From: a bacterium
Lineage (GTDB): Bacteria > Bacillota_I > Bacilli_A > RF39 > UBA660
Assembly: GCA_029099845.1 (NCBI GenBank)
Contig: JAQXOT010000011.1
Span: forward strand, 41,044-105,043
Reading direction: 5' to 3'
Length of the DNA stretch: 64,000 bases
The translations under genes were made by a program, and so were the position numbers. Below are positions 35,453 to 47,558 of the stretch, piece by piece. Every line of letters starts with the position of its first letter. Within the stretch, counting starts at the first letter, position 1. The notes under the pieces were generated by a model, which made no database searches, had not been told where the DNA came from, and saw nothing but the letters and a program-made list of their open reading frames with translations.

Positions 35453-35755
35453 TTGGAATTTAGAATCGGGGATTTAGTAACTAGAATTTCTTATAAGCAT
35501 GATGTTGTTTTTAAAATAATTGGTTTTGAAGGCAATACAGTATTCTTGAAGGGTGTTGATTTGCGATTAATTGCTGATTGTGAAATTGATGATTTGGTTA
35601 AAGCGGAACGAGGTTTTGATGATGATAAGGAAATTATTGAAGCAAATGTACGTGACATTAAAATTGATCGTAGTCAGTATTTTTATTTACCAGGTAAAAT
35701 TTTGCATATAGATGCTGATATATATTTAAGTAATAAACTTGTTAGTTCTTTTTAA
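35453..35755 (+). CDS. yabG: sporulation-specific protease YabG, 5' gene segment (interrupted by insertion)
   Basis: TTG start; (M)EFRIGDLVTRISYKHDVVFKIIG...RLIAD...YFYLPGKILHIDAD is collinear with B. subtilis YabG MQFQIGDMVARKSYQMDVLFRIIG...RLIAD...YFHMPGKVLHLDGD. It then runs into a foreign stop. Confidence 0.8.
   Translation: MEFRIGDLVTRISYKHDVVFKIIGFEGNTVFLKGVDLRLIADCEIDDLVKAERGFDDDKEIIEANVRDIKIDRSQYFYLPGKILHIDADIYLSNKLVSSF
35711..35730. other. attL-like junction of the yabG intervening element
   Basis: GATGCTGATA..TATTTA shares its core with GATGGTGATA..TATTTA at 47037, in the same codon phase. Confidence 0.6.
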
Positions 35756-35959
35756 AATAAGTAATTATTAAGGAAAAGTCTAAAATTTTATATTTTAATT
35801 AGATGGGTTAAAACAGGGATGGTTGTTCTTGTTTTTTTTGCGTAAGTTGTTTTTTTTCTTTCTTTTTTATTTGATATTTTGTTTTGATATTTACAATTTT
35901 TTTCTATTAATTATGTTTTTTTAATGTTATAATTGTTAATAGAGAAGGGTAGGAGTGTT

Positions 35960-37576
35960 ATGGGGAAAGTCAAAAAGACTACAAAAAATGATAGAACTTT
36001 ATTTTTTGTATGTTTATTGATATTTGTTGTAGTAGTTTTTATAGTGCCGTCTATACAGACAGTTACTACTAATATTGTTAATGTTAAAAATTCAAGGACG
36101 TTGCGTATTCTTTCATCATATGAGAACGAAGTGGTTGAAGAAGAAGTTAAGGCTTATGCTAAAAGCATTGATAAGCAAGTATCTTTTACTTATATGGGTG
36201 ATTTGGATATTGTTAGTGAGTTAAATAATAATTCTTCAAATTATGATGCTGTATGGATTTCTAATTCAATGTGGTTGTATATGCTTGATAATTCTTATTT
36301 AACAAGTGACTCAAAATCAATAAGTATTAGTCCCGTTGTATTTGGAATAAAAAGAAGTAAAGCTTTAGCTTTGGGACTTGTTGATACTGATGTTACTAAT
36401 ATGGATATTCTTAATTTGGTTAAAGAAAAAAAGATTAAGTATGTTATGTCTTCTGTAACTCAGACTAATGTAGGTGCTACTGCATATTTAGGATTTTTAT
36501 CATCTCTTGCTGGTAATCCAGAGGTTTTAACTGAAGAAATGTTGGATGATGAAAATTTAGTTAATGATTTAATTAGCTTATTTTCTGGAGTTGAACGGGT
36601 TAGTGGTGATGAATCTTATCTTGAGGATATGTTTTTAAATGATGATAATTATGAGGCGGTTATTGCTTCTGAGGCATCTTTAATTAATATTAATAAGCGA
36701 TTACAAAAACAAAATAAAGAAGAATTATATTTTATATATCCAAGTGATGGAGTAGCTATTAATGATTCAGCGTTTGCTTATATTAATAGTGATGAGGTAA
36801 AGAAGGAGACTTTTTTAGAGATTCAAAGTTATTTGCTTAGTGATGATGGACAGAAAATGCTTGAAGAAAAAGGGCAAAGAACTTGGTATGGTGGAGTTAG
36901 TGATAATAGTAATATTAAGATTTTTAATCCTAAGTGGGGAATTGATACTAAGAAGTATTTGAACGTGACGAAATTTCCTTCCAAAAATGTTATTACTAGA
37001 GCAATTAATTTATATATTGAGAAGTTAAGAAAGCCAACACATGTAGTTTTCTGTTTAGATTATTCTGGCAGTATGTCTGGTGATGGTATAGAAGAATTGA
37101 CAAATGCGATGGATTATATTTTAGATTATGATAAAGCTTCAGCTGATAAGTTGCAGTTTTCTGAAAATGATAAGATAACAGTTATTACATTTAATTATGA
37201 GGTTGATGATATTTGGCAAGCAGAAAGTGGTTATAATACTGCTGATTTGATACGTAATATAAATAATAAGTATCCAGTTGGTTCAACAGCACTTTATGAT
37301 GCTATTATAAGTGGCCTTGATATTTTAAGTGAGGATTCTGATGAGTATACTAAAACAATTATTGCTATGACTGATGGAGCGGTAAATGTTGGTACTTTTG
37401 AACATTTATCTTCGTATTATAAAAGTATTAATTCCGATATTCCTATTTATAGTATTACTTTTGGCGATGCCCGTGAATCACAATTAGAAGAAATTGCTAA
37501 ATTATCAAATGCTAGAGTTTTTGATGGTAAAACTAATTTATTAGAGGCTTTTAAAGATGTTAGAGGGTATAATTAG
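35960..37576 (+). CDS. membrane-anchored protein: solute-binding-protein-like domain fused to C-terminal vWA domain (TerY-like)
   Basis: N-terminal TM; vWA MIDAS motif VVFCLDYSGSMSGDG with ...GSTALYDAI...AMTDGA; the N-terminal domain is paralogous to ORF 38198..39388. Confidence 0.7.
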   Translation: MGKVKKTTKNDRTLFFVCLLIFVVVVFIVPSIQTVTTNIVNVKNSRTLRILSSYENEVVEEEVKAYAKSIDKQVSFTYMGDLDIVSELNNNSSNYDAVWISNSMWLYMLDNSYLTSDSKSISISPVVFGIKRSKALALGLVDTDVTNMDILNLVKEKKIKYVMSSVTQTNVGATAYLGFLSSLAGNPEVLTEEMLDDENLVNDLISLFSGVERVSGDESYLEDMFLNDDNYEAVIASEASLININKRLQKQNKEELYFIYPSDGVAINDSAFAYINSDEVKKETFLEIQSYLLSDDGQKMLEEKGQRTWYGGVSDNSNIKIFNPKWGIDTKKYLNVTKFPSKNVITRAINLYIEKLRKPTHVVFCLDYSGSMSGDGIEELTNAMDYILDYDKASADKLQFSENDKITVITFNYEVDDIWQAESGYNTADLIRNINNKYPVGSTALYDAIISGLDILSEDSDEYTKTIIAMTDGAVNVGTFEHLSSYYKSINSDIPIYSITFGDARESQLEEIAKLSNARVFDGKTNLLEAFKDVRGYN

Positions 37577-37584
37577 GTGTTATT

Positions 37585-45434: not shown

Positions 45435-46959
45435 TAGGTTAATAGTAGCTTATGTTAGATTATCTCAAGAAGATAAGAATAAATTAAAAGATTTTTCAGA
45501 AAGTATATATAATCAGATAGATTTAATAAAGTCTTATGGAGAAAGTAAAGGTTTAAGAATTGATAAGGCATATATAGATGATGGATTTAGTGGAACTAAT
45601 TTTGAACGTTTGGGTTTTCAAAAATTAATTGCTGATATAGAAAAAGGGCTTGTTCGGGTAGTAATTACAAAAGATATGTCCAGGTTAGGTAGAAATTTTA
45701 TAGAGTGTGCGTATTATATTAGCGAGTATTTTCCCAAATATGGGGTAAGATATATTGCAATAAATGATAATTTTGATAGTAAATATACTAATGATAGTGG
45801 GAATATTGTAGTTAGTTTTAAATCTCTAATTAATGATAGGTATGCAAGAGATATTTCGATAAAAAGAAAAAAGATTGCAGATATTAAAACATGTGATGGA
45901 CAGTTTATAGGTTTTATAGCTCCTTATGGATATAAGATAGTTAAGAAAGATGGCAGAAGAACTTTAGAAATAGATGAAGATGCGGCACTAATTGTTAGGA
46001 GAATATTTACTGAAATAGCTTTAGGAAAAACAAGACAGGAAGTTGCTGATGGTTTAAATAATGATAAGATTTTATCTCCTATATTATATATGAATATGAG
46101 GCCGGCCAAGAATAAGAAATATTATTATGATTGGTCTAGTAATATTATTTATAGAATATTAAAAAATAAAACTTATACTGGGAAGATAGTAAAAAGAAAG
46201 TCAATTAAAAAAAGTTATTTACAAAAGAATAGGAAAATTATTCCTATAAGAGAAAGACAAGTAATAGATAATTGTCATGAGGCAATAGTTACAGAGGAAT
46301 TATTTAACAGAGCAAATGATAAATTAATTATTATGCAAAAGCATGAGAAAAAAGAATATAGTGGATTGTTGAGTGGTTTAGTATTTTGTGGAGAGTGTGG
46401 TAGGGCAATGCTTTTGTGTAAGAAGATGAATACTGGAGTGAGATATTATTTTGCTTGTACTAAAACTATTGATAGAAAATCTTGCCAAAATAGGACTATT
46501 GGAGATTTAAAACTAAAAGAAATTATTGTCTCAATATTACAAAGTATTGTTAGAGACTATGTATGTGAGGAGAAAATAGTATTGCAGGTTGTTAAAGATT
46601 TAGTTAAATGGGAAAGACTTAATTTAAAAATACTATATTTAAAAGAAAATATAGAATTATCTAATAAAAAAATAAGAAATTTATATTTGCAGAAAGTAAG
46701 GGAGGAAATTACTTTAGCACAATTTTTAGAAAAAGTAGCGAATGAGAGCTCTGCAAAAAAGAAATTAGAACAAAGATTAAAAGAGATAGAAAGATATAAG
46801 AATGTTGATATTTTGAAGTGCGAAATATCTACTCAATATAAAGGCTTTATAAATGATGATAAGTTTATGAGAATGATACTTGATGATTTAGTAGATAAAA
46901 TTATTATTTATAAAAATAATATAGTGAAAATATTATTTAAGTTTAATTTAGTTAATTAA
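45427..46959 (+). CDS. large serine recombinase (CcrB-like), second of tandem pair
   Basis: AYVRLSQEDKNK catalytic motif, zinc ribbon CGECGR...C. Overlaps the upstream recombinase (ATGAATAA) and ends ~75 bp from the right junction. Confidence 0.85.
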   Translation: MNNRLIVAYVRLSQEDKNKLKDFSESIYNQIDLIKSYGESKGLRIDKAYIDDGFSGTNFERLGFQKLIADIEKGLVRVVITKDMSRLGRNFIECAYYISEYFPKYGVRYIAINDNFDSKYTNDSGNIVVSFKSLINDRYARDISIKRKKIADIKTCDGQFIGFIAPYGYKIVKKDGRRTLEIDEDAALIVRRIFTEIALGKTRQEVADGLNNDKILSPILYMNMRPAKNKKYYYDWSSNIIYRILKNKTYTGKIVKRKSIKKSYLQKNRKIIPIRERQVIDNCHEAIVTEELFNRANDKLIIMQKHEKKEYSGLLSGLVFCGECGRAMLLCKKMNTGVRYYFACTKTIDRKSCQNRTIGDLKLKEIIVSILQSIVRDYVCEEKIVLQVVKDLVKWERLNLKILYLKENIELSNKKIRNLYLQKVREEITLAQFLEKVANESSAKKKLEQRLKEIERYKNVDILKCEISTQYKGFINDDKFMRMILDDLVDKIIIYKNNIVKILFKFNLVN

Positions 46960-47024
46960 AATATTAGTGGTAAAGATAAGGTGTTTTGTTTGTAATTTAT
47001 GTTTTGGATAAAATTGTTACTTAA

Positions 47025-47558
47025 CAGAAGTCAGCAGATGGTGATAATGATTATTTAGAAAGATGTATGCGTTTTTATGATGATTTAAAAGTCAAGGCTA
47101 ATGGGATTGCTTTATCAGAGGTTGATATGCCTTATCGTATTGGGGAGCTTCTTAAAGAATTTCAACCAGATATTGTAGTAATTACTGGTCATGATGCTTA
47201 TTATGCTAAAAAAAGGGATAATAAAGATTTGAATAATTACCAAAATACCAGTAATTTTATAGATGCGGTTAAAGAAGCTAGAAAATATGAAAAGAGTCAG
47301 GATAAATTGATTATTGTTGCTGGGGCGTGTCAATCTAATTATGAAGAACTAATTAAAGCAGGAGCAAATTTTGCTTCTAGCCCTAAAAGAATTAATATCC
47401 ATGCCTTAGATCCAGCAATTATTGCAGCCTCTCTTGCATTATCTGATAAGAATCAAAGTATTGACATTGTTCATTTAATTGATAAGACAAAATATGGAAA
47501 AGATGGAATAGGAGGGATTATTACGAACGGAACTATGTATGTGGGGTATCCACGATGA
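47025..47558 (+). CDS. yabG: sporulation-specific protease YabG, 3' gene segment
   Basis: ...DNDYLERCMRFYDD...PDIVVITGHDAY...IIVAGACQSNYEELIKAGANFASSPKRINIHALDP is collinear with B. subtilis YabG ...PDILVITGHDAY...VIFAGACQSHFESLIRAGANFASSPSRVNIHALDP. Confidence 0.85.
   Translation, partial: QKSADGDNDYLERCMRFYDDLKVKANGIALSEVDMPYRIGELLKEFQPDIVVITGHDAYYAKKRDNKDLNNYQNTSNFIDAVKEARKYEKSQDKLIIVAGACQSNYEELIKAGANFASSPKRINIHALDPAIIAASLALSDKNQSIDIVHLIDKTKYGKDGIGGIITNGTMYVGYPR
47037..47056. other. attR-like junction of the yabG intervening element
   Basis: GATGGTGATAATGATTATTTA; the reading frame is open from 47025, with no start codon until 47067. Confidence 0.6.

Follow-up and report, generated by a model that had tools for sequence, protein, structure and literature searches.

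A large serine recombinase cassette that splits yabG at a conserved codon in gut Bacilli and could be excised precisely in the mother cell

Skin (in sigK) and SPbeta (in spsM) of Bacillus subtilis and skinCd of Clostridioides difficile each split a mother-cell gene and carry a large serine recombinase (LSR) at one edge. When they are excised in the mother cell, under the control of a recombination directionality factor (RDF) that is expressed during sporulation (SprB, CD1234), the gene is rejoined. Yin of Clostridium botulinum V73 splits yabG, carries a large serine recombinase as well, and upon excision gives a circle and an intact yabG, as shown by PCR with a signal that rises with sporulation (Douillard et al. 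2023, PMC10747680). For yin, which was found in a single strain, an RDF and a sigma-K promoter were proposed by the authors, who reported no other yabG insertion in public data, and we found no further published yabG-interrupting element in the literature searched. Gin, in gerE of Bacillus cereus ATCC 10987, is not a prophage, and it splits a mother-cell gene from which it is excised specifically during sporulation (Abe et al. 2017, PMC5595907). Here we describe an insert in yabG that is found in a stretch of 64,000 nucleotides of contig JAQXOT010000011.1; 'the window' refers to this whole stretch, and positions are counted from its first letter. An initial annotation, made from the letters of the window, had compared the insert with skin and SPbeta, and this analogy is apt. 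The same annotation did not place yabG among the characterised targets, which must be corrected in view of yin.

The gene is interrupted at codon 87 by an insert of 11,326 bp, from 35713 to 47038 (47037 minus 35711), agreeing with the 11.3-kb element proposed beforehand. The insert sits within the coding sequence of a sporulation gene expressed in the mother cell, YabG being under sigma-K control in C. difficile (PMC3789822).

On the upstream side, an open reading frame (ORF) of 100 codons with a TTG start (35453-35755) matches the Pfam family Peptidase_U57 (YabG) at positions 2-55 with an E-value of 1.5e-16. On the downstream side, the frame 47025-47558 matches positions 109-280 of 280 with an E-value of 5.5e-72. 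Both had been taken as intact and collinear halves of yabG. They are indeed intact and collinear, but neither the 100 codons nor the start at 47025 is right. Genuine yabG in the 5′ ORF comprises only codons 1-86 and GA of codon 87 (35453-35712, + strand; tblastn match over residues 1-89, collinear with 80 intact orthologs), while the final 13 codons are encoded by the element end. In the 3′ frame, an in-frame TAA occupies 47022-47024 and YabG homology starts at 47037, so the yabG part begins at 47037/47039. Counted from the rest of codon 87 to codon 259 and the stop codon, the 3′ segment extends over 47039-47558 (+ strand). It contains the conserved stretches ITGHDA and AGACQS, which we take to hold the catalytic His and Cys, and has no premature stop or frameshift, with the same sequence in nine samples. 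Neither half shows a defect, so the frameshift or decay that had been feared in one or the other is not seen.

Because the source is a metagenome-assembled genome (MAG), a chimeric contig might be suspected. However, the same split structure recurs at 99.0-100% identity in the assemblies of at least 10 independent samples, and it was always integrated; carrier samples include ERZ28436060, ERZ28613996, SRR22328035, SRR21376892 and ERR3393515. With this recurrence, and with a joined gene that is as long as the gene in relatives, assembly artefact and chance are dismissed.

The product of a precise excision was composed in silico from 35453-35712 and 47039-47558. It has 780 nt including the stop codon and encodes 259 aa. 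For comparison, one genome per species was scanned, which yielded 80 uninterrupted yabG loci, all from uncultured gut MAGs ('Bacilli/Tenericutes/Mycoplasma sp. CAG:877/Ca. Faecimonas') with 92% as the best identity. In the five closest relatives, the uninterrupted gene is just as long as the joined one, and the alignment needs no gap. Joined YabG is collinear over residues 1-259 in 76 of the 80 orthologs, and over 1-258, 1-255 or 5-259 in the remaining four; by match coordinates, the 80 orthologs span 254-262 codons. Thus, the two halves are parts of one gene, and a precise excision would restore yabG in frame, both as initially proposed.

The residue at the joint differs from the initial prediction. 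Rejoined YabG reads HIDGDNDYLERC (HIDGDNDY) there, like the closest intact orthologs (…YFYLPGKILHIDGDNDYLERCMRFY…), whereas HIDADNDY had been predicted; the residue is Gly in 71 of the 80 orthologs, Ala in eight and Ser in two. Codon 87 falls within CATATHGATGGNGAY, the best-conserved stretch of the yabG 5′ half. At the DNA level, the 65 nt around the site are near-invariant among the orthologs (consensus TTTTATtTaCCtGG.AAaATatTaCATATtGATGGtGAT…), with GA in all 80. The predicted attB of the window (joint …CATATAGATGGTGATAAT…; longer form TTTTGCATATAGATGGTGATAATGATTA) differs at 2 of the 65 positions from that of L001, where L-numbers are labels of the related loci and contigs that were compared with the window. 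None of the 80 intact loci has a recombinase pair closer than 10 kb.

At the junctions, the shared core GATG(C/G)TGATA named in the initial annotation is present, as GATGCTGATAT in attL (35711-35721) and as GATGGTGATAA in attR (47037-47047). With its surroundings, attL is …TTGCATATA GA TGCTGATATATATTTAAGTAATAAAC… and attR is …GTTACTTAACAGAAGTCAGCA GA TGGTGATAATGATTATTTAGAA…. The left end of the element, or P′ arm, is TGCTGATATATATTTAAGTAATA (35713-35735, + strand); it is kept in L085 (as ACTGACATATATTTAAGTAAC) and L092, where the neighbouring DNA is unrelated, and the family pattern of left arms is GAT-RCTGAY-ATATATTTAAGTAA. The right end, or P arm, is GTTACTTAACAGAAGTCAGCA (47016-47036, + strand), and in 11 related loci the junction shows TTACTTAAC-N7-CAGCAGA. 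The P and P′ arms are imperfect inverted repeats of each other, consisting of CAGCA/TGCTG and, outside of these, TTACTTAA/TTAAGTAA, with CAGCA-GA-TGCTG as the palindrome centre. If joined, they would make an attP of the form GTTACTTAA-N7-CAGCA-GA-TGCTG-N8-TTAAGTAA (predicted joint …GTCAGCAGATGCTGATATA…; longer form AACAGAAGTCAGCAGATGCTGATATATATTTAAG). Incidentally, L113 (11581-11720), like L114 and L115, has GTGTATTAAATGACAATCGCCAT, which is nearly a copy of its right arm GTGTATTAAATGACAATCACCAGA, ~70 nt upstream of that arm; it may be a second recombinase-binding site.

From these comparisons, crossover probably occurs at the dinucleotide GA, at 35711-35712 in attL and 47037-47038 in attR (both + strand). 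L085 is the most informative in this regard, as its attL (CATATT GAT ACTGAC) and attR (CAGCA GAT GGCGAC) have GAT alone in common. Together, the junctions of L085, L090/L091 and L113-L115 confine the crossover to GAT, in which AT, as a palindrome, would lack polarity; this leaves GA as the likely 2-bp overlap. The TnpX family recombines at 2-bp sites, which are listed as GA for Tn4451 (PMC5704250; PMC3158075), and GA is present in every intact attB. Also, Gly in the closest orthologs and in the 71 of 80 places the crossover to the left of the C/G mismatch.

Two other crossover positions were considered and rejected. Crossover in TGATA would produce DAD, yet DGD stands in the closest orthologs, as it does in 71 of the 80, and the C in question belongs to the conserved palindromic P′ arm. 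Crossover at TATTTA, which had been regarded as part of the core in the same codon phase, would leave the joint one codon short relative to the orthologs. The two TATTTA motifs differ in register by 3 nt and have unrelated origins: one consists of host Tyr-Leu codons, and the other belongs to the conserved arm ATATATTTAAGTAA of the element.

Two full-length large serine recombinase genes adjoin the right junction, in accordance with the early claim that the element carries its own recombinases next to one junction, and they end 57 nt before the right arm. LSR1 (523 aa; 43863-45434, + strand) and LSR2 (516 aa; 45409-46959, + strand), which overlaps the LSR1 end, share 35% identity, and each has the Resolvase, Recombinase and Zn_ribbon_recom domains. 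Of the solved structures, that of the TnpX catalytic domain (2mhc) is nearest to both (E 7e-26 for LSR1 and 8e-25 for LSR2), and the catalytic Ser is aligned with that of TnpX (for LSR2, YVRLSQED / YERLSRDD). LSR1 matches the SPbeta integrase (SprA/YokA) weakly (E 2e-14), and the Ccr and XisF models are far from reaching their cut-offs (NCBIfam CcrB, 109 and 73 bits vs cut-off 900). LSR1 is 51-76% identical across eight related elements, and the tandem recombinase pair is kept in 8/8 elements. That the insert is a site-specific serine recombinase cassette with a precise joint is, in our judgement, nearly certain.

Upstream of LSR1 lies a micro-ORF of 40 aa (43674-43796, + strand) with a strong ribosome-binding site (RBS). 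It is conserved at this position: of 13 related contigs extending this far, 10 have it, whereas it was not called in L092, where a 15-codon remnant is left, in L093, or in L126, where it lies 238 nt upstream of LSR1. As called, the 93 clusters of the micro-ORF family have lengths of 37-70 aa, with 37-47 aa in about 70 clusters and greater lengths in about twenty. None of the 93 clusters has a functional name, and the micro-ORF of the window has no match in Pfam, NCBIfam, PHROGs or PADLOC. GirX, the RDF of gin, has 42 aa (PMC5595907), and it is in size that the micro-ORF is likened to it. We regard the micro-protein as a candidate RDF, a role that is possible but that we would sooner doubt than assume.

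The module varies in some family members. In L081 (2343-3084), L082 (2814-3555) and L090 (11620-12015), LSR2 is separated from the right arm by an additional ORF of 131-202 aa with a truncated resolvase domain, sometimes together with a 57-aa ORF; the element in the window has none. In L088 (8345-8682) and L089, which hold the same element, LSR1 has no canonical in-frame start upstream of the catalytic serine. An ATG there is directly followed by TAA in another frame, with the other 519 codons intact in two independent samples, which could reflect a non-canonical start, a frameshift or early decay.

Among described systems, gin is the closest in architecture. It has three serine recombinases, including a two-gene operon girAB, in addition to GirX (PMC5595907). 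However, its excision during sporulation is done by the separate GirC while girAB is dispensable and silent, its core has 9 bp and its target is gerE, whereas in the element described here the tandem pair are the only recombinases. Skin, SPbeta and skinCd each have one recombinase and another target gene, and count as prophages or remnants of prophages. The TnpX of Tn4451/Tn4453 and TndX of Tn5397 resemble our recombinases in the catalytic domain (the closest solved one, E 1e-25) and the RLSxxD motif; their crossover is at a 2-bp GA, as is probable here, and their excision gives a circle, as would that of the cassette. On the other hand, TnpX alone suffices without an RDF and has low target specificity, and those elements carry mobilisation genes; the element in the window has two recombinases, one strict target (yabG in 7/7 contexts, see below) and no mob gene. 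The CcrA/CcrB system of staphylococcal cassette chromosome mec (SCCmec) is likewise non-phage and non-conjugative, with variable cargo, a two-gene serine recombinase operon and one conserved chromosomal gene as its target. But SCCmec, which is not linked to sporulation, leaves its target undisrupted, as it inserts at the 3′ end of rlmH, and the window recombinases are not Ccr equivalogs.

Homologs of LSR2 number in the thousands, and those of 42-69% identity that were placed all lie in yabG. When the genomic context of seven of them (68, 67, 56, 53, 49, 44 and 42% identity) was inspected, all seven were at the same yabG codon and adjoined veg-spoVG-yabP. The module of micro-ORF, LSR1 and LSR2 and the element ends are kept among family members, while the cargo is unrelated. 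L085 carries a single ATPase, with ~5.4 kb between its junctions; L083, L094 and L113 carry HTH, sigma-70 region 4 and PemK genes; L088 and L092 carry a dockerin-containing M26 peptidase exceeding 3,400 aa; and L090 carries an RHS/YD toxin. Cargo in this large and, as far as we can see, undescribed family ranges from toxins and toxin-antitoxin pairs to giant surface proteases and stress genes. With about 100 recombinase clusters and the 93 micro-ORF clusters, the family lands at the same yabG codon. yabG itself was already known as a target; what is new is this family-level result and the module of two recombinases and a micro-ORF.

The family is mobile. L090 and L091 share the same element over 12.1 kb (one 600-nt window at 99.8%, others at 100%), whereas their host flanks are ~71% identical, and the identity breaks right after …CAGCAGATG. 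A more distant element, with the arm GTGTATTAAATGACAATCACCA in front of GATGG, is identical in the three hosts L113-L115, one of which has SipL and YunB downstream; here the break falls between …CACCA and GATGG. Since identical elements occur in different hosts with identity ending at the GA core, the family is both site-specific and horizontally mobile. In L113 (11764-13117), the yabG 3′ part is followed by a RepA_N plasmid-replication gene, not by veg, while the same element is chromosomal in L114 and L115. A plasmid-borne yabG site might serve as a transfer vehicle.

Between the yabG halves of the window, there are eleven ORFs, all on the + strand, and the cargo among them is stress- and toxin-like. 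Those preceding the recombination module include a membrane-anchored protein with SBP_bac_11 and vWA domains (35933-37576; Pfam VWA 7e-15, SBP_bac_11 4e-8), an XpaC-like protein of the Halogen_Hydrol family (37585-38205; PF10112, 1e-25), a 400-aa protein (38186-39388) with no match in Pfam, NCBIfam, PADLOC or PHROGs, and a TelA (toxic anion resistance) family protein (39400-40542; PF05816, 1.7e-118). They are followed by a SpoVK/CbbX/EccA-like AAA+ ATPase with a long N-terminal extension (40574-42166; Pfam AAA and AAA_lid_6), for which NCBIfam spore_V_K (1.6e-70) and EccA (1.9e-55) are both below cut-off. The last is a protein with a weak WXG100-like N-terminus (0.008, below cut-off) and a GDPD phosphodiesterase domain (42380-43525; Pfam GDPD 1.6e-10). 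The adjoining ATPase and WXG100-like/GDPD genes (40574-43525) might form a type VII-style secreted toxin pair within the cargo.

PHROGs gave integrase matches only among the insert ORFs and no phage structural, packaging or lysis genes, which argues that the insert is not a prophage. A reading as a defence island was rejected, as PADLOC gave weak AAA-ATPase matches (IetA, TRIP13) and no system. Rfam found no RNA elements inside the insert. The insert is a non-phage, non-conjugative integrative cassette in an uncultured, low-GC, spore-forming gut member of Bacilli. Although it shares its target with yin at the level of the gene, yin is of a prophage-like kind (Caudoviricetes), with a single recombinase that adjoins the 5′ fragment of yabG, a 14-bp repeat and an RDF candidate of 72 aa. 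The window element is non-viral and has two TnpX-like recombinases beside the 3′ fragment, a probable 2-bp GA core and a 40-aa micro-ORF, and its family is found in many hosts. With these differences and the recurrence of the structure in independent assemblies, the chance that the locus is a yin-type prophage or a chimeric assembly appears minimal.

Promoter-like motifs precede both yabG and the recombination module. Upstream of yabG, the −10-like CATAGTATTA (35425-35442, + strand) is followed 4 nt later by the RBS GGAG and then by the TTG start at 35453, and the geometry CATAnnnTTA-N3-5-GGAGATGAT is kept in 10 orthologs; this −10 is of the mother-cell sigma type defined in PMC3789822. Upstream of the micro-ORF, GAATTAA-N14-CATATTGT followed by the RBS AGGAGG (43627-43665, + strand) forms a similar site. 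In six diverged elements, TTCATAnnnTWA followed after 1-4 nt by a GGAGG RBS stands upstream of the micro-ORF amid otherwise unalignable DNA, and in several elements a GTATGAA-like block is found 14 nt upstream of the −10 motif. Sigma-E and sigma-K share a CATA-type −10 element (PMC3789822). The module is thus, as we infer from the letters, preceded by a mother-cell (sigma-E/sigma-K-type) promoter motif.

The strict motif occurs twice in the window, at yabG and at the micro-ORF. In a relaxed form (CATAnnnT-N2-10-GGAG), it occurs 5 times vs 2.6 expected by chance, and in 4 of the 5 cases it precedes genes, namely bofA, yabG, yabP and the micro-ORF. The first three are mother-cell genes in B. subtilis. 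The BofA homolog (59 aa, 20215-20422; Pfam E 6e-9) comes directly after recR with the same CATAnnnT-RBS motif in front, and its presence speaks for retention of the sigma-K processing checkpoint in this gut lineage of small genome size.

We conceive that the cassette could be excised specifically in the mother cell. During sporulation, the module would be transcribed in the mother cell, where LSR1 and LSR2 would recombine attL with attR, probably as a hetero-complex that needs both recombinases, and the micro-protein would probably direct them towards excision. The cassette would then leave as a circle, and yabG, rejoined in frame (…HIDGDNDY…), would be expressed from its own sigma-K-type promoter. 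The forespore would retain the integrated copy, by which the element is inherited. Taken as a whole, this course is somewhat more probable than its rivals combined, as judged from sequence comparison.

Several results weigh against it. Two attP patterns searched against JGI metagenome contigs and one P-arm pattern searched against IMG/VR gave chance matches only, in GC-rich DNA without recombinase or yabG nearby. An exact look-up of the rejoined protein among 15 billion proteins, in both DGD and DAD variants, gave no match. The micro-protein matches no known RDF family, and TnpX (PMC5704250) and CcrAB operate without an RDF. The promoter call is based on a short motif that in its relaxed form occurs 5 times vs 2.6 expected and has an ambiguous −35. 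Because identical elements in different hosts make the insertions evidently recent, intact halves of yabG are no proof of selection after insertion, and the within-species test by single nucleotide polymorphisms (SNPs) is powerless, with 0 SNPs in 782 nt of yabG vs 1-2 per kb in the flanks (nine samples). In addition, spore formation in B. subtilis and C. difficile does not require yabG, so that a permanent loss of the gene could be tolerated.

As an alternative, the yabG site could be a mere landing pad in a dispensable late-sporulation gene, with rare excision for transfer and with yabG switched off in carriers. In favour of this, no excision product or rejoined allele was found in the public data searched, the insertions look recent, which leaves the intact halves uninformative, recombinases of the TnpX and Ccr types excise and integrate without an RDF, and yabG is not essential for spore formation. 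But the mother-cell-type motif before the module in six diverged elements, mirroring the yabG promoter, would then be left over. So would the split allele, which is apparently fixed in the species although yabG is strongly constrained in all relatives (dN/dS about 0.04, though dS is saturated and the time of insertion is not fixed). Homology search for an intact or rejoined allele of the same species gave as its best an intact YabG only 92-93% (92.7%) identical, and sister lineages with YabG C-fragments 93-94% identical are also split. Moreover, yin, the only yabG element to have been tested, rejoins its gene, increasingly on sporulation. L092, in which the micro-ORF and the right arm are decayed, has a full yabG downstream, which also counts against this alternative. 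We therefore consider the landing-pad alternative unlikely, though far from negligible.

The L092 contig (CANSRG010000002.1, 61,823 nt; L092:7756-11551 and L034:10001-10780) contains a divergent yabG 5′ fragment, attL, the 15-codon micro-ORF, LSR1, LSR2 and a 3,484-aa M26 peptidase. After this cargo comes a complete yabG with its own promoter, and there is no right arm. One possibility is that the element became immobile and was rescued by a new copy of yabG; another is that the contig is a chimera.

Could the cassette in the window itself be an immobilised remnant that is unable to excise, with both yabG halves being young pseudogenes? No excision product was found in the public data searched, and SNPs in LSR2 among the nine samples of the element are mostly nonsynonymous (2 synonymous, 6 nonsynonymous, small numbers). 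In LSR1, however, where SNPs reach 19 per kb, most are synonymous (19 vs 11 nonsynonymous). The two recombinases, the micro-ORF and the two att arms are undamaged and conform to the consensus of the family, and neither yabG half is defective, which makes such a remnant very improbable. The SNPs cluster in LSR1 and in the genes of the 400-aa protein and TelA (38186-40542, ~9 per kb), compared with 1-2 per kb in the flanks and 0 in several cargo genes; this clustering suggests mosaic exchange between element variants.

Developmental excision could be generalised to the family. yabG would then be a general landing pad for non-viral cassettes that hop between uncultured gut Bacilli and Clostridia and are excised only in the mother cell, by a recombination module of a new type in which a 40-aa directionality micro-protein and a heteromeric TnpX-like pair are under a mother-cell promoter, so that they would amount to SCC-like cassettes adapted to spores. 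We offer this extension tentatively, as falling a little short of an even chance.

Elsewhere in the window, four consecutive ORFs of 192, 201, 208 and 226 aa (31856-34454) lie between tatD and rsmA without a significant Pfam match. The last of them, of 226 aa, resembles a SipW-type S26 signal peptidase (E 0.004), and the four may be a TasA/SipW-like secreted-protein cluster. A T-box leader is found upstream of metG (28937-29142), and a small SRP RNA at 16901-16996. All large ORFs are on the + strand from 7027 onward, and the GC skew is 0.28-0.57 over 30000-52000 (the range profiled), as expected for a leading-strand region near the origin.

Interruption of yabG is thus common and phylogenetically broad in uncultured gut spore-formers, by a kind of element other than yin. 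For annotators, it is a caution that the 100-aa and 163-aa 'YabG' fragments in MAGs are not pseudogenes. If excision is developmental, the family would provide a widespread added case of programmed gene rejoining in the mother cell, and its module of two recombinases and a micro-protein with a well-defined and highly conserved attB might serve as an orthogonal integrase tool. It would also show how RHS toxins and giant M26 peptidases spread among spore-forming commensals.

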